A program made the position numbers and the translations under genes. A DNA stretch of 64,000 nucleotides from a virus. Lineage: Duplodnaviria; Heunggongvirae; Uroviricota; Caudoviricetes. The notes beneath the pieces are model-generated. The model did not search any database. It was not told the DNA's origin and was given only the letters and a program-made list of their open reading frames with translations. This document shows, piece by piece, positions 7,041 through 58,775 of the stretch (within the stretch, counting starts at the first letter, position 1; every line of letters begins with the position of its first letter). The DNA lies in the IMG/VR virus record IMGVR_UViG_3300011242_000001, positions 50,439 to 114,438 of that record. One strand, 5' to 3'.

Positions 7041-7412
7041 CTATTCTGGCTTCCAAAGCTTAGCAAACTTTAATACGTTAGGTATATTGCCAGTGCTTAC
7101 GGGTAATGTAACTAAACAAGATTTTTTACCACCCAAGGTATTATTTTCATGACCGGCGTAACATACTAATTGGGATTGTATTTTATTAAATTCTTTTTGA
7201 TTTACCTTAACAACCACCTTTTTAAATGATTCTGTTTTCCATTTTGAATATGTATCGGGAATATTTGTATTACCTAAACAATTAAATTCAATCGAATCTA
7301 AAAAATAGCTATCAGCCGCTAATACAGCATGCGCTACTAAAGTGGGTACCATATAAGATGGGAATTCATCTAATACAGCAATATACATTTTTAAATATGG
7401 TTCTTGGCTCAT
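7041..7412 (-). CDS. hypothetical protein
   Basis: 123-aa ORF; AAGGAGA RBS upstream on the minus strand; start abuts the 5' end of structured element A. Confidence 0.5.
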   Translation of the reverse strand: MSQEPYLKMYIAVLDEFPSYMVPTLVAHAVLAADSYFLDSIEFNCLGNTNIPDTYSKWKTESFKKVVVKVNQKEFNKIQSQLVCYAGHENNTLGGKKSCLVTLPVSTGNIPNVLKFAKLWKPE

Positions 7413-7432
7413 TCTTAATTTCTCCTTTATTT

Positions 7433-8045
7433 GGGTATGACTCGACCTTTATATCCGTGATTTGAGTAAAATTAAATTAAATTTAATAATAAAATTAAGA
7501 ATGATAATAAAAACTTAAAAATATTATTAAAGTAATTACTAATGATGATATACATATGGAAAAATGATAAGAAAACATATTTACAATAATTTGTACTTTG
7601 ATTCTCTATTTCTACAATGAGAAATCAATTTAAATCAGGGCTGGTCCAACAATACCAATATCACCGTGTAGAGCGGCTTATTACAAATTTACATCTCGTC
7701 TCTCGACACATTCTTTGCCGTAGAATGTATATCCCCTAAGAATTTGTTCCGGCTTCTTAGGCACCAAACTATATACTAGTTCAAATGGATCAATCAAATA
7801 TCCATCCTATCAGTTATTATAGAGTTATATTCTATGACGAATATATTGAAACTACGGTTGGTGTGGCGGATTCTAAACTATCTATGCAATTATATAATTT
7901 AGAATCTGTTCTTTACCTCTATAAAAGATTATATTATCTGATTAAAGTAAAGTCTTCGTTTCAAAGTGGTTGATTACCGTATAACCATGATTGGATCACG
8001 TCGCCTGTTGTTAGGTCAAACATTGCAGGCACTTTATTTTTTAAT
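7433..8045 (+). ncRNA. ORF-free conserved structured element A (candidate novel ncRNA or cis element); homologous to the inverted copy at 36598-37298
   Basis: About 610 nt with no conserved ORF. It shares multiple blocks with the reverse complement of 36598-37298: tatgactcNacctttatatccgtgatt, ccaacaat, cacattctttgccgtagaatgtatatcc, ctaaga..cggc.tcttag.cacc, ctatgacga..gttggtNtggcgg, gtggttgattaccgtaNaacca, ggatcac. Perfect hairpin ACATTCT-ttgccgt-AGAATGT. Covarying stem CTAAGA(A)/(T)TCTTAG versus CTAAGAG/CTCTTAG. Confidence 0.45.
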
Positions 8046-8170
8046 TGCAAAGATATTATCAATCTTCATTCTTTTCTCTATTATTTCGCGCCCAAGAAAA
8101 GTAAGGCAGGCTGCAACTTAGGTTGAGACTTATTTATATTTTATATCACATTTGATTATATTTGTAAATA

Positions 8171-8197
8171 AAAAAACTCCCGAAGGAGTCTTTATTT
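8171..8197 (-). terminator. rho-independent terminator (hairpin ACTCC-cgaa-GGAGT with flanking A/T runs)
   Basis: Stem-loop plus T-run on the minus strand immediately after gene 8208..8465. Confidence 0.55.
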
Positions 8198-8207
8198 TAT
8201 AAAATCT

Positions 8208-8465
8208 TTAGTTATAAAATGGATCTTTCATTAATGCAATTAATAATGCGTTATGCTGATCAACCACTAAAAATGTTGTGAACGGTTGATATTCTCTATT
8301 ACATCGTGTAATAAAGTGACCAAACAAGCGTTCGCCTTCTTCGGCACCAAAAATGCTTTGGAATTTACGCAAATCCGATTTATATTGGAATTTAATAATT
8401 CTTCCATTAAATGAGCTCCAATTTCTTAGAACTGTTAATTCATCATTTGATAATTCATTAGACAT
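8208..8465 (-). CDS. hypothetical protein
   Basis: 85-aa ORF followed by a terminator. Confidence 0.45.
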   Translation of the reverse strand: MSNELSNDELTVLRNWSSFNGRIIKFQYKSDLRKFQSIFGAEEGERLFGHFITRCNREYQPFTTFLVVDQHNALLIALMKDPFYN

Positions 8466-8480
8466 ATAATTTACTCACTT

Positions 8481-8924
8481 TTAAACATAATAAACGACAA
8501 TTTCTAAATCTGGTGTAACTTCATTAATAATTTGTTGAATTGTAGCCCAATCACCGCCAGCAAGACCTGCACCAATACGAGGTATACATGCAGTTTTGCC
8601 TTTAAAGTCTTCATTTAATAATGCGAATCCTTTTCGAACAGCGTCATAATCTACTTGAATTTGATGTGTACCAAAATCATATTGTGTATATAAGTTAATT
8701 ACAGTACCAAATTCTGTTACAGCCATTGAATAAAGACCAAGTTTATTTTTTGTACCAATTGGAGTTTTACAATCTGCTTGATAAGCATTAGGGTATCTGT
8801 ATTTTACAATAGCTGCGATTCCACCTCCCATGGTATGGAAGCAATTACAACCATGTACTAGTATATCATATTCTTTCTTTTCAAATGGTACAAATAAGTT
8901 TTCTTTAATTTCAGCAACGATCAT
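8481..8924 (-). CDS. macro-domain protein (ADP-ribose binding/hydrolase, MacroD-like)
   Basis: Motifs VHGCNCFHTMGGGIAAIV and IPRIGAGLAGGDW match the macro-domain Gly-rich loops; start set at the internal Met MIVAEIK, which has an AGGAAA RBS. Confidence 0.6.
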   Translation of the reverse strand: MIVAEIKENLFVPFEKKEYDILVHGCNCFHTMGGGIAAIVKYRYPNAYQADCKTPIGTKNKLGLYSMAVTEFGTVINLYTQYDFGTHQIQVDYDAVRKGFALLNEDFKGKTACIPRIGAGLAGGDWATIQQIINEVTPDLEIVVYYV

Positions 8925-8982
8925 GTGTTTTTTCCTGGCCAAATATAATAATATATATAAGCAATTATATCGGAGATACATA

Positions 8983-16121: not shown

Positions 16122-16556
16122 TTAACACAAAGCACGTAACACTTTGAGCTGTGATGCTAAGATACGTGGAGCACCATCACCTAACTGGATCGATTTAGCG
16201 GTTGCAATTGTTGATACAAACACTAAAGCACCATTGGATGCGGCATCATAAATACCGAGTGAAACCACTGTTCCCCAGTTACCAGTTGGGACTGGAAAGA
16301 TTAATTCAGCTGTATTGTTATATTCCTGGTTAGTACCGGTTGGTCCAGTCCAAGTACCAGCAACGCGAGGCAACTCTACACGTGAATATCCTGTACCTGA
16401 CGCCGAAACCTCTACGCCGCCAGTACCATTTAGGTTAGGTGTTGTAGTAAATAACGCAAGCCATAAGCTTGATGGCATTGAAGGCATCGCGACACCTTTT
16501 AAAAGGTAGTCGAGGAAATTCTGTGAGGTTGTATAAGAGAGCGTACTAGAAGGCAT
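16122..16556 (-). CDS. hypothetical Gly/Thr/Pro-rich protein in a locally GC-rich segment
   Basis: 144-aa ORF; the segment reads clearly GC-richer than its flanks by eye; beta-rich, fibre-like composition. Confidence 0.45.
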   Translation of the reverse strand: MPSSTLSYTTSQNFLDYLLKGVAMPSMPSSLWLALFTTTPNLNGTGGVEVSASGTGYSRVELPRVAGTWTGPTGTNQEYNNTAELIFPVPTGNWGTVVSLGIYDAASNGALVFVSTIATAKSIQLGDGAPRILASQLKVLRALC

Positions 16557-16675
16557 GTATAATTCCTCAATTTGATTTTTTATAATTATATTTATGCAAC
16601 TTATTTATGTACTTTTAATTATATTTGCTTTAATATAAGTATGTTTTGTAACCTTCTAAAATTGGTATTTAAATC

Positions 16676-16858
16676 ATGCATAATAAATTTGCTGACGCCG
16701 CTAAAGCTAAATCTGAATTGCCACGTAAAGAATGTATTCCTTATATTACAAAAGATGATACATCTATTAAATATGATTGGTTCACACAAGAAGAATTTCA
16801 AAAAACTGGATATATCCAGGTTAATTTATCAGGTTTTGCCGATCATAAAGATGAATAA
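16676..16858 (+). CDS. small hypothetical protein
   Basis: 60-aa ORF. Confidence 0.3.
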   Translation: MHNKFADAAKAKSELPRKECIPYITKDDTSIKYDWFTQEEFQKTGYIQVNLSGFADHKDE

Positions 16859-16867
16859 GGACTATAA

Positions 16868-17098
16868 ATGATAAAATGTTTATTAAAATCTCTAGCGTGG
16901 CGCATTTTAGATAAAGAATTGCGTCAACATTATATTCAGCGATCACACTTCAATGAATATACTAAATGGATGAGTCGAGATTTTCCTATCATGGAAGATA
17001 TGTTTGAACATTTTAAAGATGAGCCATATGGACAAGCTCGTCGCATTGATGTTCATAGAGAAGAAATGAAAGAAAAATATTTTCCTAAAGAAAAATAA
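16868..17098 (+). CDS. small hypothetical protein
   Basis: 76-aa ORF followed by a hairpin terminator. Confidence 0.35.
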   Translation: MIKCLLKSLAWRILDKELRQHYIQRSHFNEYTKWMSRDFPIMEDMFEHFKDEPYGQARRIDVHREEMKEKYFPKEK

Positions 17099-17118
17099 TT
17101 AGGAAATATTTTATTAAA

Positions 17119-17145
17119 AGGTCTATTTATAGACCTTTTATTTTT
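17119..17145 (+). terminator. rho-independent terminator
   Basis: AGGTCTAT-ttat-AGACCT hairpin plus T-run. Confidence 0.55.
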
Positions 17146-17210
17146 ACCAATATAATTGTACATACAAATTTATATATGGTATTATTACTTTACTTTAGAT
17201 ATGAGCCTAT

Positions 17211-18236
17211 ATGATGAATATTTTAAATTTATCGGCTAAAGATATTTTAGCGATTAAAATATTTTCTGAAATGTTCACCGGAACAGAAGATGAAAATAAA
17301 AAAACATATCGTATGCTTTTAAAAAAATGGCATCCAGATATGAATAGTACGGATACAAGCGATGTATTTGTACATATTACACAATTGTATGATAGCTTAT
17401 CTATTAATATAATTCCGAAATCTGTAGAGATTAACGGCAAGTCATATGATTATATATATGATGTTGTAAAAGATTTATATACAATTTACTATACTGATAA
17501 TGGTACAGGATTTTTAATTAAGTTCAATCAAAAAGCAGATGGACTTAAACAAAATTATAAATCTAATTTAACTAAGCTTCAATCTTTATTGAAAAATCAT
17601 AAATTTGAAGATCGTTATAAAGATTTGTTATCTTGTAATATTTATGAAAATAAAGAATTTGCAAAAATCAGAGTACCTGCAGGTTATGTTCCTTTAAACC
17701 TGGCTTTAAAATATATTATATCTTTTAAAGATTGGAAAATTTCAGCATACATTATTTCGCGTTTATATGATACAGCGTTATTGTATAAAAATGCAGGTCT
17801 ATCATGTATCGGATTTGATCCTGATTTTATCTTTTTAGATACTAAAAAACATCAAATTATTGATTTATCAGCATTATTTTTCTCTACTGAGAGCAATAAA
17901 TCTTTAAGTCTTGCACTTACTCCAATGCAAGCATCCGCATTTATTAAAGATGACCTACAAAATAAAAAGTGTAGTGATGATTCTATTAATAGTATGATTA
18001 ATTCATTAGGCTTAATGTTATCAGGTGATTTAAATCGATTTGGTAATATTAATGTATTAGATGATTCTGCAAATAAAGAAATGGTTAAAATTATTAGTGG
18101 TATTGGTATTAATGTTCCAATTCGCAATAATTATGAAGCATGGCAAACTAAACTAGTACAACGTATTTTTAATGAAAGATCTTTTTATAAAAAAGAAATT
18201 GTATTTGGTGATTTAACAAAATATATTGGTAATTAA
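17211..18236 (+). CDS. J-domain (DnaJ-like) protein
   Basis: N-terminal segment KKTYRMLLKKWHPDMN...QLYDSL matches the J-domain helix II/III with an invariant HPD tripeptide; 341 aa. Confidence 0.6.
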   Translation: MMNILNLSAKDILAIKIFSEMFTGTEDENKKTYRMLLKKWHPDMNSTDTSDVFVHITQLYDSLSINIIPKSVEINGKSYDYIYDVVKDLYTIYYTDNGTGFLIKFNQKADGLKQNYKSNLTKLQSLLKNHKFEDRYKDLLSCNIYENKEFAKIRVPAGYVPLNLALKYIISFKDWKISAYIISRLYDTALLYKNAGLSCIGFDPDFIFLDTKKHQIIDLSALFFSTESNKSLSLALTPMQASAFIKDDLQNKKCSDDSINSMINSLGLMLSGDLNRFGNINVLDDSANKEMVKIISGIGINVPIRNNYEAWQTKLVQRIFNERSFYKKEIVFGDLTKYIGN

Positions 18237-22834: not shown

Positions 22835-24769
22835 ATGTTTTATACATCAGTTGTAAAAATGGGAAATAATATTATTCACCGTTATATCAAAGATGGAAAG
22901 CGTTATCAAGAAATTATTAAGAATTTTGATTATGATTTATATGTGCGAAGCGAATATTCGCGAGACGCTTTAGATGTACATAAAAACCATTTAAAACGTT
23001 ATAATTTTGACAATATTTATGATATGAGTCAATTTATTAATGAAAATGGTAATGACAATGTTTATGGTAATACTGATCCAGTAACACAATTTATAGCAAA
23101 AACATATCCTGATGAAATTAAATTAACTAATGATTATGTAGTTCTAAACTTCGATATTGAGACCGAACACGGCGAAGGCTTTATCAAATATAAAGACCCT
23201 CATATTATCCAGGTTCAAGAAGATAAAAATGAACCAATTAAAATGGCATTGGGTGAATTTAAAAAGATCGATCTAAATGTACATGAATATCATGTATATG
23301 ATGAAGAAAAAAAAGATTGGCTTCTTTATGAAAATTCATGTTATGCGCCGCAACAACTAGGATTCCCAGACCCAAATTTAGCTTTATACCAGGTAATGTC
23401 GGTATCATTAATTTCATCTTTAGAAAATATAATTTATGTATATGGTACTAAAGAATTTAAAGGTGCACGCACAATTGAAGGATCTGATTATACTATTCGT
23501 CATATTTATTGCGCAAATGAAAAAGAACTTTTAGTTAAATTTATTCAGAAATGGCGTGAAATTAAACCTGATATTTTAACTGGCTGGAATGTTGAAGGAT
23601 TCGACGTACCATATATTATTAATCGTATTGTGCGTGTACTTGGTAAAAAGTTTGCTAATATGCTTAGCCCATTTGCTAATGAATCACAAAACTGTATTCG
23701 CGAACGCCAAAAAGAAGATGCCGTTTATTATAGTATTTCAGGTATTACCATTTACGATTACCTGTCTGTATATAAAAAGTTCTCGCGTGAAAAACGTGAA
23801 AGCTATAAATTAGACTGGATTGGTAAAGTAGAAGTAGACCATCAAAAGATTTCATATGACGAATATGATAATTCACTAATGAAATTATGGGAATACGATT
23901 ATGATAAATTCATTCTATATAATGCTATCGATACATTAATTGTTAATAAGCTAGATAAGAAATTAAAGTTTATTAATCTTGCAATTACGATTGCTCATAT
24001 TACTAAATCAGATTTAAGTGATGCTTTAGGTACCATTAAAATTTGGGATAATATGATTTATAACTTACTACGTAAGCGCGATATTCAAATTCCACCAAAT
24101 ATCAAACAAGAAAAATCTAAAGAATTCTTGGGTGCATTTGTAAAAGAGCCATTACTTGGTCGACATGGTTGGACTTTAACATTCGATTTAACATCGCTAT
24201 ATCCAAGTATTATTCGTATGTTAGGTATGTCACCGGAAACACTTATTGATCGTGAAATTGGTAATGATTTCACTGCAAATAGTGCCGTGCGAAAAGTTAT
24301 TAAATCCAATATGGATATTGTTGCCAATATTATTATGGACGGTGAATTTGGCACAGATAATGAATTATCAGAAGATTTATATATTCTTAAACGATTTGAA
24401 TCAGCCGATGTTAATAAAATTAAATCATTAGATAAAAATACAATGATTTATGTTTTACAAGAATTACGTCGGGCAGATGAATATTATAATTCTGGTCATA
24501 ATCATATTCATGGTGTTAAAACAGTATTAGAAAATGTTGAAAACTTTATTAATATGGTGACCGATCTTTCTTGGGCTAAAGAAAAAAATGTCACTGTAGC
24601 AGGTAATGGTTCAACATATGATAAATCCACTGAAGGCGTAATTCCTGAAGCGATGACTCACTTATTCAATTACCGTAAACTACTTAAGAATAAGATGAAG
24701 GAAGAAAAGAAAAAATTACAGCTAAAAATTGAAGAGCTACATAAGTTAGAATCACAGCTAACATCTTAA
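22835..24769 (+). CDS. 43: family-B DNA polymerase, N-terminal fragment (gp43 part A: 3'-5' exonuclease domain and palm motif A)
   Basis: MFYTSVVKMGNNIIHRYI matches T4 MKEFYISIETVGNNIVERYI; FDIETE exo I; LTGWNVEGFDVPYIINRI matches LTGWNVESFAIPYVYNRI; GAFVKEPLLG...FDLTSLYPSIIR matches GAFVKEPIP...FDLTSLYPSIIR (motif A); ends with a coiled-coil-like tail KKKLQLKIEELHKLESQL; GGAG RBS. Confidence 0.85.
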   Translation: MFYTSVVKMGNNIIHRYIKDGKRYQEIIKNFDYDLYVRSEYSRDALDVHKNHLKRYNFDNIYDMSQFINENGNDNVYGNTDPVTQFIAKTYPDEIKLTNDYVVLNFDIETEHGEGFIKYKDPHIIQVQEDKNEPIKMALGEFKKIDLNVHEYHVYDEEKKDWLLYENSCYAPQQLGFPDPNLALYQVMSVSLISSLENIIYVYGTKEFKGARTIEGSDYTIRHIYCANEKELLVKFIQKWREIKPDILTGWNVEGFDVPYIINRIVRVLGKKFANMLSPFANESQNCIRERQKEDAVYYSISGITIYDYLSVYKKFSREKRESYKLDWIGKVEVDHQKISYDEYDNSLMKLWEYDYDKFILYNAIDTLIVNKLDKKLKFINLAITIAHITKSDLSDALGTIKIWDNMIYNLLRKRDIQIPPNIKQEKSKEFLGAFVKEPLLGRHGWTLTFDLTSLYPSIIRMLGMSPETLIDREIGNDFTANSAVRKVIKSNMDIVANIIMDGEFGTDNELSEDLYILKRFESADVNKIKSLDKNTMIYVLQELRRADEYYNSGHNHIHGVKTVLENVENFINMVTDLSWAKEKNVTVAGNGSTYDKSTEGVIPEAMTHLFNYRKLLKNKMKEEKKKLQLKIEELHKLESQLTS

Positions 24770-24774
24770 AAAAA

Positions 24775-24796
24775 GGACCGCAAGGTCCTTTTTTAT
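24775..24796 (+). terminator. rho-independent terminator
   Basis: GGACC-gcaa-GGTCC plus TTTTTT. Confidence 0.6.
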
Positions 24797-24855
24797 TGTA
24801 CTTACAATTATATACGCGATACAATTTATATAAATTAATGATAGAGATCATACAA

Positions 24856-25494
24856 ATGAATATTCCGCACGAAGTATATCAATTATTAGCAATTCTTAAA
24901 GAATATAATCCGCTATTGGTTGGCGGATGTGTGCGTGACTATTTAATGGGTAATGAGCCACATGATTATGATTTAGTTGTGCCACATGTACATCACCAAA
25001 TGCTGCTTGAAATAATTGAAGCTGGATGGCAAACTAAATTAACCGAAAATAATGACACAGAAATTTGGAATGTAACCAAAAAATTTCCGGTATATGATAC
25101 TATCTATTATAAAGGTTCACCTATCAATTATGTTAAAGGCGAAAAATCTTATGTAATTGAGTTGCTTTCATATAGAGGCGAAACATTAAGCGATGATGCA
25201 TCTAATCGCGACTTAACAGTTAATTCGTTATATTATGATTATTTTAATGATAAAATATTTGACCCGACTGGTCGTGGATTGGAAGATATTCAAAATAAAG
25301 TTGTTCGCTTTAATAATAAGCAAGTAGTGGAAAAAGATCCATTGCGTATTATGAGAGCATATCGTTTCGCTAAAAAATTTAATTTTACTATTGAAGATAA
25401 AAGCCTAAAACTATGTAGAAATGGATTTGATTCAATGATTAAAGAAATAAGCCCAACCAGAATACTTAAAGAAATTGAAAAACTTTGTCTATAA
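24856..25494 (+). CDS. class II CCA-adding / poly(A) polymerase-type nucleotidyltransferase, head+neck domains only
   Basis: LLVGGCVRDYLMGNEPHDYDLVV matches GGAVRDxLLG..xDxD; NRDLTVNSLYYD...FDPTGRGLEDI...DPLRIMRAYRFA matches RRDLTINALA...IDPxxGLxDL...EDPLRxLRxxRFA; no HD body domain; start taken at ATG rather than the track's TTG inside the terminator. Confidence 0.6.
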   Translation: MNIPHEVYQLLAILKEYNPLLVGGCVRDYLMGNEPHDYDLVVPHVHHQMLLEIIEAGWQTKLTENNDTEIWNVTKKFPVYDTIYYKGSPINYVKGEKSYVIELLSYRGETLSDDASNRDLTVNSLYYDYFNDKIFDPTGRGLEDIQNKVVRFNNKQVVEKDPLRIMRAYRFAKKFNFTIEDKSLKLCRNGFDSMIKEISPTRILKEIEKLCL

Positions 25495-32914: not shown

Positions 32915-32946
32915 AAAAAAAAGGACCGCAAGGTCCTTTTTTTATG
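32915..32946. terminator. bidirectional rho-independent terminator (GGACC-gcaa-GGTCC)
   Basis: Hairpin flanked by an A8 run and a T9 run between convergent genes. Confidence 0.6.
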
Positions 32947-33415
32947 CTTTTTTAATAGATTTAACTATATTATATTCGGATTTAGTCGCTAATAATACAG
33001 TTTGCGGTGTTAAATGACCATTTGAATTTTTATAACTTAAAGATATTGTTCTACTATATCCGTATGTATCAGATGATTTTCCTTCTTGATGAGCAATCAA
33101 TGCGAAAGTATGAGCTCCTTTCTTATTTTCATTTGAGTCAACTAATTCATATCCTTTTTTAAGTAATTCAGCCGGCTTAGCCGATTTTAATACAGAAGAC
33201 TCTTCAATTGAATCTAAGAAATCACTATAATTATCCCATTTTGCATCAGATTTATTTTGTACTTTACTTTGTACTATATAATTAAAACCTTCTACTACGG
33301 CTTTAACTATTGTACCGTCATCTAATTCAATAGTTAATAGATCACCTTTATTGTAATTTGTAAATTTTACACTTTTATCATTCGATGATTCATTTAAAAA
33401 TTGTTCAAAATTCAT
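32942..33415 (-). CDS. putative capsid-targeted internal protein (CTS family), 157 aa
   Basis: N-terminus MNFEQFLNESS matches the window-wide MxFxxFLNE motif, which is analogous to the T4 CTS MKTYQEFIAE. Confidence 0.5.
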   Translation of the reverse strand: MNFEQFLNESSNDKSVKFTNYNKGDLLTIELDDGTIVKAVVEGFNYIVQSKVQNKSDAKWDNYSDFLDSIEESSVLKSAKPAELLKKGYELVDSNENKKGAHTFALIAHQEGKSSDTYGYSRTISLSYKNSNGHLTPQTVLLATKSEYNIVKSIKKA

Positions 33416-33511: not shown

Positions 33512-33763
33512 TTACTTATCGCTAAAGTGTTCAGCGATATATGATTTTAAATCTTCATTATCATCACATATATAAGTATCAAGATGTTTTTCACCTTTAA
33601 AGAGAATACATTCATATTCTCCTTTGTCAAATTCAGTAATATATAAAGAATGTGTGGAATTAGTAATTAAAGTTGCTTTACCAGTATGTACTTTTGCGGT
33701 GCTAGGTACTGCAGATTTAATAGCCGAAGTTGTAATTTCATTTAGGAAGTTAGTGAAGCTCAT
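33512..33763 (-). CDS. putative capsid-targeted internal protein (CTS family), 83 aa
   Basis: N-terminus MSFTNFLNEITT. Confidence 0.5.
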   Translation of the reverse strand: MSFTNFLNEITTSAIKSAVPSTAKVHTGKATLITNSTHSLYITEFDKGEYECILFKGEKHLDTYICDDNEDLKSYIAEHFSDK

Positions 33764-33856: not shown

Positions 33857-34588
33857 ATGAATTTTGAACAATTTTTAAATGAAGCATCACCCGCGCGTGA
33901 ACGTACTGCTCGACTCACTTTTTCTAAAAAAGTAGCTGACGGGCTTGATAAAGCAGCGGGCGACCCAGAAAAAGAACGTCGCTTCGGTAAAGCTATTTTT
34001 AAAGAAATGTATAAAAAATATGGCGTCGGCTATGATCATTTATTAGATTCACTTGAAGGATCAACAGCTGAAAAATTAGAACAAGCAAATGCATGGGCTG
34101 CTTTAGAAGGTGTTCGCGATTTTTATGCTGAAAAAGGTGATACAAAAACAGCAGAATCTTATCAACGTACAATTGATAAAATGGATCGTGAAACTACTAC
34201 TAAAACCGGATCGGCTGCTTTAATTAAAAATATTATTGCGGCAATTAAACCAGGCGGTAAGTTTAACGAATTTGCCGAATATGATACTAACAAATTTGAT
34301 ATTGTTTTCCCAAAACATAGTCCAAAAACCACTGAAGTTAAAGAATCTGTTAGTAAAGCAACAGCGAACTTATATTTTCAGCATAAAACTACTACATATA
34401 AAAAAGTAAGTACAATATCATATATGGCGAATATTATTATTGCTTATAATGGACCTCGTGCTGGTGAAATTATGCATATCATTTATAATGATAACGGCGT
34501 CACAAAAATTAAAACATTCGGTACGGAAAATTTATTAGATGACGCTTTAAAAGGTACATTTAATAATAAAACGATTACAAAAGTTTAA
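33857..34588 (+). CDS. putative capsid-targeted internal protein (CTS family), 243 aa
   Basis: N-terminus MNFEQFLNEASP. Confidence 0.5.
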   Translation: MNFEQFLNEASPARERTARLTFSKKVADGLDKAAGDPEKERRFGKAIFKEMYKKYGVGYDHLLDSLEGSTAEKLEQANAWAALEGVRDFYAEKGDTKTAESYQRTIDKMDRETTTKTGSAALIKNIIAAIKPGGKFNEFAEYDTNKFDIVFPKHSPKTTEVKESVSKATANLYFQHKTTTYKKVSTISYMANIIIAYNGPRAGEIMHIIYNDNGVTKIKTFGTENLLDDALKGTFNNKTITKV

Positions 34589-35994: not shown

Positions 35995-36411
35995 TTATGC
36001 GTCTTTTTCTTCGGTTGGTTTTAAATCTTCAATCAATTCACCAAGGTAACCATATAATTCATCTTTACCAAATTTCTTCTCTAATTCAGTAATGAACGCT
36101 TCAATATCTTTACCACCACCAGTAATAGGAGCGCCTTCATCGTCATTCACATCAACATCGCCATCTTGTGAAATACCAGCTTCTACTGTTACTGTACCCG
36201 TTTTGCCATCTTCAGTTGTAACTTCAAATTTAACTTTAGCTAAGTGGACTAATTCATCACCACCAAACTCATCATATGCTTCATCAGCATCGCCGTCAAA
36301 TCCACCAACTAAGCCATAACGAATAAATACATAGCTTTTAGCATATTTAAAAGCATTATCAAAAGCAGCGGTTGCACCTTTTGCTTCATTTAAAAAATCT
36401 GCAAATTTCAT
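35995..36411 (-). CDS. putative capsid-targeted internal protein (CTS family), Gly/Asp-rich, 138 aa
   Basis: N-terminus MKFADFLNEAKG. Confidence 0.5.
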   Translation of the reverse strand: MKFADFLNEAKGATAAFDNAFKYAKSYVFIRYGLVGGFDGDADEAYDEFGGDELVHLAKVKFEVTTEDGKTGTVTVEAGISQDGDVDVNDDEGAPITGGGKDIEAFITELEKKFGKDELYGYLGELIEDLKPTEEKDA

Positions 36412-36597
36412 TTTTATTAATCCTAATAATTTTAATAATATTATTTAATAAAAATAATGTACATTTATTTACAGCTATGTTATAAATACAACATGATAAA
36501 AGTCTTATGTAGTAATGCATACAGCCTGTCTTTATTATATCCGGACGCGAAAAATAGGATATAAGATGTGAATTGATAACATTCATGCAATCGAAAT

Positions 36598-37298
36598 TAA
36601 TAAAGTCTGGGCAACGACGACCCCTGTCGACCTAGGACGGTGATCCCACGAAAGTGGTTTACGGTAATCAACCACCTGAAGATGAAGAATCTAATATTAT
36701 TCCATATGAATATAAAATATTAGATTCAGTTATTATAAAGAATGATTGCACAGTTTTTATAATAACCGCCATACCAACAGTAATCTTCATATGATCGTCA
36801 TAGATCATAACTTATATAAGAATGATAAGATAAGCATTTAATTGGTTTATCTGAACTGTCTATATTATTTGGTGTCTAAGAGGCCGTAATAAGCTCTTAG
36901 AGGATATACATTCTACGGCAAAGAATGTGCTGAAAAGCAAGGCAAACTTAAAAGCAAGTCCATCTACAGGATTATGCGAGCATTGTTGGGCTCAACGTGG
37001 TTCTAATTAAATGAATGTGTAGATAATAGTTCATTTAAAGTAATTATCTTTTTATAAATTAAAATTTATAAATTGAATAAAGATAATATGCAATCTCATC
37101 ACTATTTGTCTTCGACAAAATGACACGACTTTCAGTCGGTCAAACTCCATATGAATTTATAGTTTATTAATTGATAATCATTTCTTTTAATATATTTTAA
37201 ATTAATTATATATAATCATTCTTTTTCTATTTTTAAATTCTAATTTTATAAAAAATATATTTTACTAGAATCACGGATATAAAGGGGTGAGTCATATC
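36598..37298 (-). ncRNA. ORF-free conserved structured element B (inverted homolog of element A at 7433-8045)
   Basis: The reverse complement aligns block by block with 7433-8045, including the conserved hairpin ACATTCT-ttgccgt-AGAATGT and a covarying CTAAGAG/CTCTTAG stem; no ORF over 60 aa; the 5' end (element orientation) abuts the divergent gene 37391. Confidence 0.45.
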
Positions 37299-37328
37299 TA
37301 AAAGAAAGTAAAAAAGAATATAAGAATA

Positions 37329-37390: not shown

Positions 37391-37954
37391 ATGCGTTATC
37401 TTGCAGCTTTTTTATCAATGCCTAATGCTGGTTCGTGGAATGGACGTTGGAGTGGTGAATCTAGACCATATGTATCATTAATTCGCGTATCAGAAGTTAA
37501 TAAAGCAAAAATGGAACGTCAATTATCAATCATTGGATCATATTACTATGATTTTGGTGATGGATGGGGTGCAAGCGTAAATATTAAAGAAGTAACCGAA
37601 AGTGAATATAAGCACTATAAAAAGATTACCGCTGGTTTTTCTGGTTATGACTGGATGGTTTCATCAATTATCAAGTATAAGCGTATCGTGAATTCAACGG
37701 AAAAGACCTTTTTAGATTTTAAAGAACTTGCAGAAAAACATTTAAACCATGTTGAATTAACTGATCATAACTGTTATGAAGAATTACGGTTTGATAATGG
37801 TCGTAATAAATTTAGCTTGCGCTTATATAATCAATATAATGATCATGCAAATGAACATATGTACTTATATGTAGATGGTCGTGAATATTGCAAAGTAACA
37901 AGTGCATCATTAAGCTTAATGGAAAGTCTTAAACATATGGCAGATGCGGCTTAA
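37391..37954 (+). CDS. hypothetical protein
   Basis: 187-aa ORF. Confidence 0.45.
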   Translation: MRYLAAFLSMPNAGSWNGRWSGESRPYVSLIRVSEVNKAKMERQLSIIGSYYYDFGDGWGASVNIKEVTESEYKHYKKITAGFSGYDWMVSSIIKYKRIVNSTEKTFLDFKELAEKHLNHVELTDHNCYEELRFDNGRNKFSLRLYNQYNDHANEHMYLYVDGREYCKVTSASLSLMESLKHMADAA

Positions 37955-45401: not shown

Positions 45402-45800
45402 ATGAGTTTTGAACAATTTTTAACTGAAGCAGCTGAACCGCCATATGAAACAGTTAATACGGATCAATTAAATGTTTTACGTCAAGAGATTGATCGCAGC
45501 GCATTACGTGTAGAATTAAATAAAAAGTATATTGATAAATCTGATCTTAATATTAGTTTATTTAATAATGACTATTATATTGGTGGCATGCGATTAGATA
45601 ATGATGATAATGTTATTGTTAAAGTTGCAATTATAGTTGAAGTAACGGAAGAGGACGGTTATTTATATTATAAGATAGCAAATATTGTATATGATATCAA
45701 TCAAAATAAAATTATTAAGATAATTGAAAATGATAAGATTCGTGATGAAAATTGGAAAACAGTTCAAGGCGAAATTTTAAAAACCGCCATTAAATTATAA
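45402..45800 (+). CDS. putative capsid-targeted internal protein (CTS family), 132 aa
   Basis: N-terminus MSFEQFLTEAAE. Confidence 0.5.
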   Translation: MSFEQFLTEAAEPPYETVNTDQLNVLRQEIDRSALRVELNKKYIDKSDLNISLFNNDYYIGGMRLDNDDNVIVKVAIIVEVTEEDGYLYYKIANIVYDINQNKIIKIIENDKIRDENWKTVQGEILKTAIKL

Positions 45801-46762: not shown

Positions 46763-47410
46763 ATGAAATTTGCAGACTTTCTATTAGAAGCGCCATTACC
46801 AGATACTTGGGATAAAGACAAGTTTAAAGGCAGGCTTGACTTTAAAGGTATGGTTGAATACGCATTAGAACGCTCAAAATCTTTAGGTGAAGGCTCATCA
46901 CGTGTTGCATTTAATATTGAATATAAAGGTCGTGAAACAGCTTTAAAAATTGCAAAGAATCCAAAAGGCGTTGCTCAAAACGTACAAGAAATATTGTACT
47001 TAAATGATGAAAAAATTAAAAAACTTAATATCACAATCCCTTTAATTGATTATGATACAACCAACCATAAAGCACGTTGGTTACATACAGAAAAAGCTGA
47101 TAAAATTCATGACGCATATTTTGAAGAAGAATTAGGTTTACCTTTGCGGGACGCAATTCTTTATATTAACCGTGATATTAATCCACCAAAGTTGTCAATA
47201 GGTTCTAAATTACAAGCCGAACGAGGCGAAAAGCTTAAAAAAGATTCCCCTATCGTTAAAGCAATCTATAAATTATTAACAGATTTTCCAGAAATTGGTT
47301 ATGGTGATTTAGCTCGCATTCAAAATTGGGGTATGTATAAAGGGCACCCGGTTATTTTAGATATCGGATATGATTCAACCTCGGCAGTATTATATAAGTT
47401 GGCAAAATAA
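46763..47410 (+). CDS. CTS-bearing protein-kinase-like (RIO/KdoK/APH-type fold) protein
   Basis: N-terminus MKFADFLLEA; LGEGSSRVAF (Gly-rich loop), TALKIAK (beta-3 Lys), YGDLARIQNWGMYKGHPVILDIGYD (HGDLxxxN catalytic loop followed by IDFG-like metal-binding Asp); 215 aa. Confidence 0.55.
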   Translation: MKFADFLLEAPLPDTWDKDKFKGRLDFKGMVEYALERSKSLGEGSSRVAFNIEYKGRETALKIAKNPKGVAQNVQEILYLNDEKIKKLNITIPLIDYDTTNHKARWLHTEKADKIHDAYFEEELGLPLRDAILYINRDINPPKLSIGSKLQAERGEKLKKDSPIVKAIYKLLTDFPEIGYGDLARIQNWGMYKGHPVILDIGYDSTSAVLYKLAK

Positions 47411-47847
47411 TGAAATTTGTAGATTTTTTAAATGAAGTTAAGCTTTATAGAGGTGGGGTAATTCCACCTGGTAAAACACTTATTTGGTATACAGAAGATT
47501 CAGATTTTGCAACAACTTATAGTCATTTAAAAGGTGACTTTGTATTTCATGAATTAGATGCCGATTTATCAAAATACAATATATGTGATATTGGCAGAAT
47601 TGAAAATGTAACCAGTATGACATATTTATGCGGCATTTTATGGAAGTATGCTAATATTAAGGATAAAGAAATTTTTGATAAAGCTAAAAAATTGATGCAA
47701 GAAATACGAGGGTCTAGTAAAGATCATTTACATCAATTGATATTCAAAGAGCCTAGATTTATTGACTATATGAAATTATTAAAAATAGATGGTATTAAAG
47801 CAACGGAAAACAAATCTGTAACATATGGTTTTATTAATAAGCTATAA
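47410..47847 (+). CDS. putative capsid-targeted internal protein (CTS family), 145 aa
   Basis: N-terminus MKFVDFLNEVK; ATGA-coupled to the upstream gene. Confidence 0.5.
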   Translation: MKFVDFLNEVKLYRGGVIPPGKTLIWYTEDSDFATTYSHLKGDFVFHELDADLSKYNICDIGRIENVTSMTYLCGILWKYANIKDKEIFDKAKKLMQEIRGSSKDHLHQLIFKEPRFIDYMKLLKIDGIKATENKSVTYGFINKL

Positions 47848-48568: not shown

Positions 48569-49189
48569 ATGGTAAAATATTACGCTGGGATTGGTAGTAG
48601 AGAAACGCCACCTGACATTTTTAAATTGATGACAGAAATAGCTTCAATTTTAGAAGTAAATAACTTTATTTTAAGAAGTGGCGCTGCGACAGGTGCGGAT
48701 ACCGCATTTGAATCTGGTATATCTGATTTTAAAAATATGAATTTATTTTTACCCAAGCCAGTATTTAATGATCATAATTGGTATGATAAAGGCTGTATTT
48801 ATATAAATGATACACACCCAAATTATCAAGCTGCATATGATAGTATCATTATTCATCCAGCTGGATTTAAATTATCACTAGGTCCCCGCAATATGATGAT
48901 CCGAAATTATTTCCAAGTAATGGGTATTAATGACGAACCAATATCTTCATTTGTTATATGCTGGACACCAGATGGAGCTGATGGTATTACTAAGCTAACA
49001 TCGCGTGAAACTGGTGGAACGGGTCAGGCCATAAGGATAGCAAGTAAGTATAATGTGCCGGTTTATAATTTAAATAGTGATTATGGTGAAATGGATGCAC
49101 AATCGATTGTTGATATGATTTTGAAAAACCTGAATGAGGGTATTAACCCTCATATCAGAATTCAACGAAAGACAACTTCACTTTTTTAA
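48569..49189 (+). CDS. DprA/Smf-like (SLOG superfamily) Rossmann-fold protein
   Basis: YAGIGSRETP...LRSGAATGADTAFESG matches the DprA/LOG-type GxGSR...SGxAxGxD nucleotide-binding pattern. Confidence 0.45.
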   Translation: MVKYYAGIGSRETPPDIFKLMTEIASILEVNNFILRSGAATGADTAFESGISDFKNMNLFLPKPVFNDHNWYDKGCIYINDTHPNYQAAYDSIIIHPAGFKLSLGPRNMMIRNYFQVMGINDEPISSFVICWTPDGADGITKLTSRETGGTGQAIRIASKYNVPVYNLNSDYGEMDAQSIVDMILKNLNEGINPHIRIQRKTTSLF

Positions 49190-49935
49190 AGTATTTCTAA
49201 AAACTCTTCCCAACGGTCGAGTAAAACAGCTACGCATGGTCCACCAATCCAAAATTCACATTTTCCGTGAATTTTGGATATCTCATTTGACTTAATAGCG
49301 GTAAAGTTTAATTGCTTTGGGTCATATGTATATGACAAATATTTTTCAACATTATTAACATCATGTTTAAATAGTTCTGCCACAAATTCTTCTTGACTAC
49401 TACTATTATCATTAATATTTTCAATAATATGTTTAATATCGCGTACTATTGATTCATAACTACTTGAATCAATATTGCATTCTAAAAATAGGGTGTTATA
49501 TTGTTCTAAATCACCAAAGTCATCACCAATAGATGTTTCAGTCATCCAGATATCAGGCTTATTAACGCATCCAATAATAGTATCGTCATAAGGTAATATT
49601 ACATACATATTATCGCCAAATATTTTTGCTTGACGTTTATTGCTAATATTAGTACAAATAATAGAAGCCGATCTTAATGGTAAATTTGATTTAGTTTTTT
49701 TAATAAAATGATCGATCATTACAGTGTAATAATTACCATTACTATCTTTATTGCGGGATTCACGATTGCCTTTTTGTCCTTCAAATATATAGTATTGTCC
49801 AGTATTATTAGCTCCACGAATAATATAATTATCTTTATCAATATGGGAGCAATGTTTTTTTACAAGCTCAATAGCTTCGGCTTGTGTTATTGTTGTTCTG
49901 TATGAAGATTCATTTAAAAAAGTTAAAAAATCCAT
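49186..49935 (-). CDS. putative capsid-targeted internal protein (CTS family), 249 aa
   Basis: N-terminus MDFLTFLNESSY. Confidence 0.5.
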   Translation of the reverse strand: MDFLTFLNESSYRTTITQAEAIELVKKHCSHIDKDNYIIRGANNTGQYYIFEGQKGNRESRNKDSNGNYYTVMIDHFIKKTKSNLPLRSASIICTNISNKRQAKIFGDNMYVILPYDDTIIGCVNKPDIWMTETSIGDDFGDLEQYNTLFLECNIDSSSYESIVRDIKHIIENINDNSSSQEEFVAELFKHDVNNVEKYLSYTYDPKQLNFTAIKSNEISKIHGKCEFWIGGPCVAVLLDRWEEFLEIL

Positions 49936-56057: not shown

Positions 56058-56248
56058 TGCATCTAGGTTATCTTGTAGTACATAGAAGTGGTACAGATTC
56101 AGAAATTTATAGAATTAGTAAATTTAATGATGATGATACTTGCGAAATAATTTCGTATGTTAATGGTCGTGTAAAAACATTATCTATATCCCAATTACGT
56201 GAAGCTGATGATATTGAAGTCATGATTGGTAGCAGGATGAAAAAATGA
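56057..56248 (+). CDS. small hypothetical protein
   Basis: 63-aa ORF with overlapping start/stop couplings. Confidence 0.3.
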   Translation: MHLGYLVVHRSGTDSEIYRISKFNDDDTCEIISYVNGRVKTLSISQLREADDIEVMIGSRMKK

Positions 56249-56580
56249 AATTTAGTGATTATATTGCTGAAGCAAAAGAACAATATACGTTATACGTAGA
56301 TAAAAAACAAACAGTTGTACTTGATGATGCACCACCGTGGATTGATCATCGTAATGATGATTATGAAAAATATGTTGAAGTATATATTAAAGTAAAAGGT
56401 AATGATAAAGATAAAATTGCTTTATTAGTTGGTGTTAATATTGACGACGGTGAATATACGGTTATTGATACAAATATTCATGTTGATAAAGACAATAAAG
56501 ATCTTTTAAAATTCGTTAAATTAAGCACAGAACAAATTGAAGATTTATCTAAAGAAGAAGCTGAAACCGCAACCTCTTAA
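56245..56580 (+). CDS. putative capsid-targeted internal protein (CTS family), acidic, 111 aa
   Basis: N-terminus MKFSDYIAEAKE (IAE exactly as in the T4 CTS). Confidence 0.45.
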   Translation: MKFSDYIAEAKEQYTLYVDKKQTVVLDDAPPWIDHRNDDYEKYVEVYIKVKGNDKDKIALLVGVNIDDGEYTVIDTNIHVDKDNKDLLKFVKLSTEQIEDLSKEEAETATS

Positions 56581-58538: not shown

Positions 58539-58775
58539 TTACTTACTCATTTCTTTTTCGTATTTTTCAATATCTTCCATGGAAAGCCATTCAGGTTTTT
58601 TATCCAATGCGTTCCATAATTCTTTCATTTTTTCAATTTGTTCTTTAACACTGCCAGCCCATAAACTTGACTCAGAACGACCACCAGCTTTTAAAAAATA
58701 TTCACAGTCGCTTCGTAAACGACTCAATAACATATAATCGCCTTTGCTTTCATTTAAAAAGTCTTGAAAATTCAT
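58539..58775 (-). CDS. putative capsid-targeted internal protein (CTS family), 78 aa
   Basis: N-terminus MNFQDFLNESKG. Confidence 0.45.
   Translation of the reverse strand: MNFQDFLNESKGDYMLLSRLRSDCEYFLKAGGRSESSLWAGSVKEQIEKMKELWNALDKKPEWLSMEDIEKYEKEMSK

Follow-up and report, generated by a model that had tools for sequence, protein, structure and literature searches.

To our knowledge, natural RNAs of more than 500 nt with elaborate tertiary structure are rare outside the ribosome, the list comprising RNase P, the group I and group II introns, OLE, GOLLD, ROOL and few others. GOLLD and ROOL show a single-copy pattern per genome and often lie beside tRNA genes in phage or prophage DNA. T4-type phages carry group I introns. 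T4 oriF and oriG and ColE1 RNA II (~550 nt) are R-loop origins, in which a lasting RNA-DNA hybrid primes leading-strand synthesis; those of T4 use early or middle promoters. The put RNA of phage HK022 (~70 nt, two stem-loops) acts in cis and makes RNA polymerase resist downstream terminators. The T4 late-promoter consensus, TATAAATA, lies some 6-7 nt upstream of the start site, and the capsid-targeting sequence of T4 internal proteins is MKTYQEFIAE. GOLLD, ROOL and OLE are large RNAs of unknown function, borne by phages or bacteria, that form homo-oligomers (PMC12286853). The leader of the T4 gene 32 mRNA consists of a pseudoknot, an unstructured A+U-rich tract and a ribosome-binding site (PMC3014915), and PeSLs are conserved promoter/terminator motifs that mediate gene exchange in T4-type phages (PMC4122927, PMC2839356).

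The locus described here lies in a 64-kb stretch of DNA (the window) from an uncultivated, distant T4-like phage, whose DNA polymerase is less than 40% identical to that of any deposited phage. Two copies, A and B, of a non-coding element of 650-800 nt are found in the window. Comparison of diverged copies shows a predicted fold of ribozyme-like complexity that is conserved, under selection and present in several diverged paralogues. As far as tests on sequence reach, the element is a new RNA family, because it has no match in Rfam 15 and no description of it was found in the searchable literature; no defined class combines its size, paralogy and position. On balance, we favour the reading that it is a new large structured RNA that would form the 5' module of accessory-gene transcription units, transcribed from the opposite strand to that originally proposed.

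Like GOLLD, ROOL and OLE, the element exceeds 500 nt, is protein-free, has many helices with tertiary contacts, and resides in phage or prophage DNA. It differs from them in having no Rfam match, several paralogues per genome, no tRNA gene in the window, a position directly ahead of genes and no terminator, and in being confined to one clade of uncultivated T4-like phages; the adjacency to tRNA genes typical of GOLLD and ROOL was looked for and is absent from the window, the tRNA genes of one relative (L014; relatives are designated here by L numbers) lying ~7 kb off. With put it shares the character of a folded RNA just past a (putative) promoter, heading phage transcription units, with more than one diverged copy per genome and conservation of structure over sequence, but its core is ~520 nt long with kissing loops, and position alone is compatible with the overriding of terminators. 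The order of folded 5' element, A+U-rich tract and ribosome-binding site recalls the gene 32 leader; the T4 operator, however, lies within ~70 nt of the start codon of one autoregulated gene, whereas the element is tenfold larger and precedes unrelated genes. PeSLs, too, are non-coding modules that recur at the borders of variable accessory genes; the element also bears signs of modular exchange between copies. A PeSL, however, is a small composite of an early promoter and a stem-loop terminator, repeated at indel boundaries and acting at the DNA level, and membership of a PeSL cassette was rejected on the unit size (650-900 bp), the ~20 covarying helices with their long-range pairs, and promoter hexamer pairs that do not rise above shuffled sequence.

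Group I and group II introns are in a similar size range and have a compact fold with tertiary loop contacts, but the element is intergenic and interrupts no gene. Its neighbours have their own starts and stops and differ between loci, no Rfam intron model matches, and there is neither a domain V-like hairpin nor a GUGYG at either end; both intron classes were rejected on these grounds. No Pfam family of the reverse transcriptase type was found in the ten neighbouring proteins scanned, and no intron-encoded protein was seen.

The preliminary description of this stretch had aligned 7433-8045, block by block, with the reverse complement of 36598-37298. The homology is confirmed: the cores of A and B are 65% identical, the 28-mer CACATTCTTTGCCGTAGAATGTATATCC occurs exactly twice in the window (7707-7734 on the + strand, 36902-36929 on the - strand) where zero occurrences are expected, and the 17-mer CCTTTATATCCGTGATT also occurs twice (7446-7462 +, 37269-37285 -). 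The boundaries had been set too narrowly. Copy A extends over 7433-8113 and is homologous to the reverse complement of copy B at 36522-37299, with a promoter-like motif outside each. Across copies the unit measures 650-900 bp and has three parts, a core of ~520 nt, a variable AT-rich spacer and a terminal block of ~40 nt (Table 1). The spacer, ~90-290 nt in other copies, is not alignable, contains 12-26% G+C, and has a base skew opposite to that of the core. In copy B it holds, at 37126-37138, a hairpin CGACT-GAAA-GTCG with TGTCATTTTG after it; both are read on the - strand, whereas for the core of this copy the + strand is favoured below. The terminal block is the best-conserved part of the unit and accompanies every complete copy. 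The A and B sites are the only ones in the window within 0-1 mismatches of 14, so that the block is no promoter or motif of general use in this genome. Nor does it represent a coding or leader segment common to paralogous genes, since the two adjoining genes are unrelated. Inspection of the element ends by eye revealed no terminal repeats or target duplications.

Table 1. Coordinates of the element copies, their predicted structural features and associated features in the window
Feature	Position	Strand	Remarks
Structured core, copy A	7591-8113	-	523 nt, ~20 helices; aligned with eight relatives (alignment A7)
AT-rich spacer, copy A	7473-7590	-	U-rich on - strand; variable
Conserved terminal block, copy A	7433-7472	-	+ strand reads GGGTATGACTCGACCTTTATATCCGTGATTTGAGTAAAAT
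Structured core, copy B	36522-37046	+	Aligned with relatives
AT-rich spacer, copy B	37047-37258	+	Lineage-specific hairpin at 37126-37138
Terminal block, copy B	37259-37299	+	~90 nt upstream of gene 37391-37954
Kissing loop TCTACA	7611-7616	-	Pairs with loop TGTAGA 7667-7672 (-); helix 3
Invariant loop CCAAC	7646-7650	-	Complementary to invariant GTTGG 7857-7861
3-bp hairpin, GNRA tetraloop GAGA	7698-7707	-	A7 columns 116-125, A8 columns 443-452
Hairpin ACATTCT-TTGCCGT-AGAATGT	7708-7728	-	Helix 7; two pairs changed on both sides; conserved loop
Hairpin CCTAAGAA...TTCTTAGG	7735-7761	-	Helix 9; two-sided changes in 6/10 pairs; 97.8% paired
Long-range helix, TTGAAAC (7846-7852) with GTTTCAA (7958-7964)	7846-7964	-	Helix 14
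Closing helix, block half	7456-7461	-	CGTGAT on +; pairs with 7995-8000
Closing helix, core half	7995-8000	-	ATCACG on +; ~540 nt from block
Internal hairpin GCCTG...CAGGC	8003-8030	-	Helices 19-20 covary; structure continues beyond
Two further covarying hairpins	8050-8066, 8071-8101	-	Helices 21 and 22; 4/5 and 6/7 pairs changed on both sides
Hairpin CCAC-GAAA-GTGG, GNRA loop	36646-36657	+	Favoured strand of copy B
Perfect TATAAATA (T4-type late-promoter consensus)	8131-8138	-	Reads into copy A
Perfect TATAAATA	36481-36488	+	Reads into copy B
Bidirectional intrinsic terminator	8172-8193		Closes upstream - strand genes before promoter-like motif
ORFs with capsid-targeting-sequence-like (CTS-like) start	32942-33415(-), 33512-33763(-), 33857-34588(+), 35995-36411(-), 45402-45800(+)
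CTS-like ORFs (continued)	46763-47410(+), 47410-47847(+), 49186-49935(-), 56245-56580(+), 58539-58775(-)

The absence of a credible ORF, stated in the preliminary description, is borne out. At least ten stops interrupt each of the six frames in every copy, and the 62-aa ORF at 7785-7973, described as unconserved, is kept in no relative. A protein-coding reading was rejected because of the stops in all frames and because substitutions lack three-base periodicity. The Rfam scan suggested at the same time, covering the 4227 models of Rfam 15 (including Intron_gpI, group II domains, GOLLD, ROOL, OLE, HEARO, raiA, RNase P, tmRNA and 6S), found no family on either strand in six diverged copies. At the gathering threshold there were no matches in the whole window; at E<=10 the region 7300-8300 gave only chance-level matches, over the flanking terminator or at the edges; and at E<=1 nothing overlapped the element in L084, L067, L014, L033 or L043.

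Compensatory changes were counted by RNAalifold in 64 of 108 pairs with five sequences and in 67 of 94 with nine. The structure submitted to further comparison consists of 22 helices with 130 pairs in the nine-sequence alignment A7. Standard pairs occupy 90.6% of its pair cells, against 74.5% after column shuffling and 33-43% when the 3' partner is slid by 1-3 columns. Changes on both sides are found in 81 of the 130 pairs (41.7 when shuffled), and the covariation score of 0.455 compares with 0.172 for shuffled alignments (0 of 500 shuffles reach the observed value) and 0.06-0.10 for slid ones. The copy A core folds with a z-score of -2.36 when read as the - strand, and of -2.09 as the + strand. 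The proposal that the element is a large structured RNA is thus upheld by compensatory changes across nine diverged sequences.

Single helices behave accordingly. The hairpin ACATTCT-TTGCCGT-AGAATGT, singled out in the preliminary description, is real and covaries, its stem ACATTCT/AGAATGT reading ACTATCT/AGATAGT in L033 and L085 and ACACTCT/AGAGTGT in L014. The stem CTAAGA...TCTTAG, said there to change in a compensatory manner, does so as helix 9, where CCTAAGAA/TTCTTAGG becomes CATAGCAA/TTGCTATG in L014 and CTCCAGGAA/TTCCTGGA(G) in L084. A third hairpin, GTGGTT...AACCAC, is present in the sequence but is not the sole pairing of its segment, which has two competing ones. The GCCTG...CAGGC hairpin with its T-run had been taken for the 3' end; covarying hairpins continue 70-80 nt beyond it and the terminator scan is silent. 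A T-rich run does follow this hairpin in all copies, interrupted in L033 and B. An intrinsic terminator at 8003-8040 was rejected on all three counts (no call by the scan, interrupted T-run, fold going on). On the favoured strand an A-rich linker leads up to GCCTG...CAGGC, a hairpin internal to the element.

The core contains at least two predicted loop-loop or loop-strand pairings that covary. The kissing pair UCUAC/GUAGA (helix 3) becomes UGUAU/AUACA in L014 and L067; GCC in the loop of the 7708-7728 hairpin pairs with GGC at 7865-7867, ~150 nt off, and reads GUC/GAC in L067; and a loop CGG pairs with CCG, replaced by GAG/CUC in L084. The loops CCAAC and GTTGG are complementary and thus a candidate pair, both being invariant in 9/9 sequences and so showing no covariation. 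Helix 14 (7 bp) closes a 115-nt sub-domain, with 5/7 pairs changed on both sides and 100% paired. The closing helix joins the terminal block to the core; it shows a C-G to U-A change in L067 and extends to 8 bp in L084. Such long-range and loop-to-loop covariation argues for RNA tertiary structure, being unexpected of DNA protein-binding sites or cruciforms. The alternative of a structured DNA element (origin or packaging site), kept in view by the preliminary description, is disfavoured, as helices spanning up to ~115 nt, loop-loop contacts and the ~540-nt pairing all covary.

It would appear that the RNA is quite probably the reverse complement of the strand first proposed, that is, window - strand for copy A and + strand for copy B. 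This polarity is indicated by GNRA loops, core skew, wobble pairs, the placement of TATAAATA, the orientation of neighbouring genes and the distribution of terminators. The 7698-7707 hairpin has a UUUC or UCUC loop on the first-proposed strand in 8/9 sequences and GAAA, in most relatives, on the reverse strand, where a C.A mismatch of L085 becomes U.G. A second hairpin, that of 36646-36657 in copy B, shows GAAA on the reverse strand also in L014, L067, L069 and L084 (four lineages), and in L067 it closes with U.G on that strand (C.A on the first-proposed one). In the closing helix, L084 has G.U on the reverse strand (A.C forward) and L069 has U.G (C.A forward). In 7/7 copies tested, the first-proposed strand of the core shows A<T and G<C; the sense strands of the phage's genes have A>T and G>C. 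The nested helices alone do not fix the strand, because G.U and A.C are nearly balanced in them (17 vs 17; 43 vs 34 in a second count), a balance unusual for RNA, and alifold energies are similar on both strands. Against the favoured strand stand a wobble-rich extension of the GCC/GGC loop pairing (UUGCCG/UGGCGG, helix 8), whose pairs can form in the forward strand alone, and the spacer, whose base skew favours the strand first proposed. A short convergent transcript might conceivably start near the terminal block of copy B.

A perfect TATAAATA lies 18-33 nt outside the core, at the same relative strand and place, in A, B, L043 and L067, whose flanks are otherwise unalignable. L033 and L014 have only versions with two mismatches, and L069 and L084 have a different extension there. 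The motif is not over-represented in the window (24 found, 30 expected); 11 of the 24 copies lie in intergenic DNA, which makes up 16% of the sequence, and two just upstream of a CTS-like gene. Its use as a putative late promoter in this phage is plausible. A scan for sigma-70-type promoters gave no hexamer pairs above the shuffle expectation in this AT-rich DNA. The variant TGTAAATA(AA), one mismatch from the late-promoter consensus, occurs at 36440-36449(-) and 8164-8173(+), pointing away from the element on the first-proposed strand; in B, L033 and L043 a CTS-like gene follows ~45-50 nt past it, and in copy A the terminator comes right after it, as if a cargo gene had been lost. At 17100-17140 of the window, between convergent small genes, AAAGGTCTATAAATAGACCTTT forms a perfect hairpin whose loop region includes TATAAATA; rather than a promoter, this is probably a terminator that works in both directions. 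The gap 16556-17211, poor in ORFs and bearing TATAAATA at the far end, was considered as a second unit and discarded on account of the two small + strand ORFs and the terminator within it.

Read along the favoured strand, copy A begins with the terminator (8193-8172), followed by TATAAATA (8138-8131), the core (8113-7591), the U-rich spacer and the block (7472-7433), after which come a ribosome-binding site and the start of a PTH2-like gene (7412-7041). Copy B has the mirror-image layout ahead of gene 37391-37954, and L033/L014, L043, L067 and L085 are arranged similarly. What the preliminary description had called the 5' end, beside a divergent start of gene 7041-7412, is therefore probably the 3' end, with a co-directional gene just downstream. 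No terminator-like site was found on the favoured strand between TATAAATA and the next gene; on the first-proposed strand of copy B, a terminator-like hairpin in the spacer precedes the core. Both copy A and L067 are embedded in long gene arrays that run on the favoured strand. The exception is L084, where a convergent gene with a CTS-like N-terminus is inserted right behind the block and the fold is still kept, so that a downstream co-directional gene is not obligatory. The rule that the block's neighbour is always divergent is broken by L084 and L080. Gene 7041-7412(-) encodes a member of a phage protein family that is very widespread (1902 matches); its PTH2 (peptidyl-tRNA hydrolase) signal is weak, and the source of one homologue gives it the name peptidyl-tRNA hydrolase. 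Also near copy A is a Macro-domain gene (8481-8981).

Relatives were sought by exact-motif scans of IMG/VR and JGI metagenomes and on contigs carrying homologues of the neighbouring proteins. Most exact k-mer matches in IMG/VR, JGI metagenomes and GTDB were due to chance and were screened out with nhmmer. Apart from near-identical copies (L001, L028, L070, L071), seven further distinct relatives were found in metagenomic phage contigs (L033, L014, L043, L067, L069, L084, L085), occupying at least four kinds of locus: A, B, C (L033/L014, adjoining a thymidylate kinase gene) and D (L067). A DNA similarity search of 50,697 deposited phage genomes (INPHARED) gave no match to the element, a loose-pattern scan of IMG/VR gave no further member, and one of GTDB, with one genome per species, gave no relative among the matches listed. 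The element is absent at the orthologous place in more distant T4-like phages. A third copy on the window's own ~381-kb contig was sought through the L033 neighbour protein, which was found on short contigs only. The family is real but narrow, comprising nine sequences from one narrow phage clade. L069 and L070 have a swapped terminal (3') domain relative to copy B, and L043 joins a B-type flank to a different core. An extra conserved stretch of ~130 nt, absent from other copies and including a hairpin AAGG...CCTT, lies past the core on the 3' side of the first-proposed strand at L069:150-300 and L084:330-480. The swapped domain and this extra stretch would indicate modular exchange between copies. 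The L085 copy, from a Logan contig, is shortened by an assembly artefact: L085:1-19, inside the element, is CTGTCTCTTATACACATCT, which we take to be Nextera adapter sequence.

If the favoured reading is correct, the copy A RNA would run on the window - strand from ~8124 to 7433 and the copy B RNA on the + strand from ~36495 to 37299. Each transcript would start a few bases downstream of the T4-type late promoter TATAAATA and, meeting no terminator, continue into the next gene (PTH2-like 7041-7412 for A, 37391-37954 for B), the ~40-nt terminal segment pairing back into the core. Transcription would be late, and the RNA would be physically continuous with the mRNA that follows it. The element would presumably act as RNA, through its three-dimensional fold. 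It could act in cis on its own transcript, affecting the stability, read-through or translation of the genes behind, or after excision as a stable RNA; a cis-acting 5' module and a released stable RNA are the two likeliest readings. The lack of a terminator leans toward a leader, and L084 together with the unrelated downstream genes leans slightly toward a function independent of the gene behind.

A rival reading is a large RNA of the GOLLD/ROOL type that stands alone and acts in trans through its fold, for example by assembling into a particle, by serving as a scaffold for proteins or by decoying host defence; it would be freed from the primary transcript, and its place ahead of genes would be incidental. 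This we consider somewhat unlikely. The size, helix number and tertiary pairings do resemble those of the ornate RNAs, L084 keeps the fold with no co-directional gene behind it, and the downstream genes are mutually unrelated, but the unit is bounded neither by a terminator nor by any processing site that could be recognised, its several diverged copies per genome contrast with the single-copy pattern of GOLLD and ROOL, no tRNA genes are nearby in the window, and the Rfam models of those two families find no match. The independent + strand RNA for copy A originally envisaged, running from the side of the divergent gene to the GCCTG...CAGGC hairpin and T-run, is quite doubtful. GNRA loops, base skew, wobbles, TATAAATA and neighbour orientation all oppose it, two covarying hairpins lie beyond the supposed terminator, and in copy B a terminator-like hairpin would precede the core; these outweigh the T-rich run in all copies, the UUGCCG/UGGCGG pairing exclusive to that strand, the GAAA hairpin in the copy B spacer, and the upstream gene of L084, co-directional with that strand.

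An R-loop replication origin and a PeSL-type cassette are less likely than the leader and stable-RNA readings. The former would combine a promoter with a pre-primer RNA that folds and an AT-rich stretch that melts easily, and the several copies per genome, the orientation of the window copies (outward from a 28-kb DNA polymerase block), the spacer of just 12-26% G+C and a core close in size to the ~550-nt RNA II are all in keeping with it. The motif upstream is nevertheless of late type, where T4 origins fire early, and tertiary loop-loop pairings exceed what a primer RNA needs, so an origin is very improbable. We give hardly any credence to a module acting as DNA, whether a PeSL-like recombination cassette that shuffles accessory genes or a selfish, ORF-less mobile element. 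Copies do lie at the boundaries of variable accessory or CTS-like genes, and the swapped 3' domain of L069/L070 and the composite L043 fit such shuffling, but at 65% identity the copies within a genome are poor substrates for homologous recombination, selection keeps pairing across long distances, and the 650-900-bp unit, with no terminal repeats or target duplications seen, compares with PeSLs that are described as small.

Each of the known large elaborate RNAs revealed a new capability of RNA, and this element, if the reading of it is true, would join a very short list. It is possible, and we suggest it tentatively, that it represents a new class of compactly folded phage RNA with an activity of its own (catalytic, self-assembling, or reprogramming the transcription or translation machinery in cis), several diverged copies of which head late units of T4-like jumbo phages. 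A cis action on late transcripts would mean a mode of gene control new to the T4 superfamily; a trans action would make the element a new ornate RNA that has paralogues within a single genome. A comparative set is in hand (nine diverged sequences, ~80 compensated pairs, candidate kissing loops and tetraloops), as is a clear genomic setting, behind a late-type promoter motif and ahead of accessory genes.

Several features of the source phage were also recorded. One window protein is recorded on a contig of 380,997 bp (~381 kb; a jumbo phage). The two copies of the element point outward from a 28-kb block that contains the DNA polymerase gene. The polymerase ORF, 22835-24769(+), encodes 644 aa, of which only residues 1-477 are spanned by the match to other T4-like phages; a 232-aa ORF, 24796-25494(+), follows directly, and in relatives, too, the polymerase is found as a short fragment (401 aa in L074). 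This lineage may have a split polymerase gene. A search for tRNA and tmRNA genes found none in the 64-kb window; the relative L014 (IMGVR_UViG_3300011947_000001) has three tRNA genes, at L014:975-1222, ~7 kb from its element. Ten window ORFs (Table 1) begin with the CTS-like pattern M-x-F-x-(D/Q/N)-F-L-x-E, for example MKFADFLNEA, as do many ORFs of the related loci (L033, L014, L043, L067, L084), and several of these genes adjoin RNA elements. The shared start suggests that the CTS-like ORFs encode a large, variable set of proteins that would be packaged in the head and injected.
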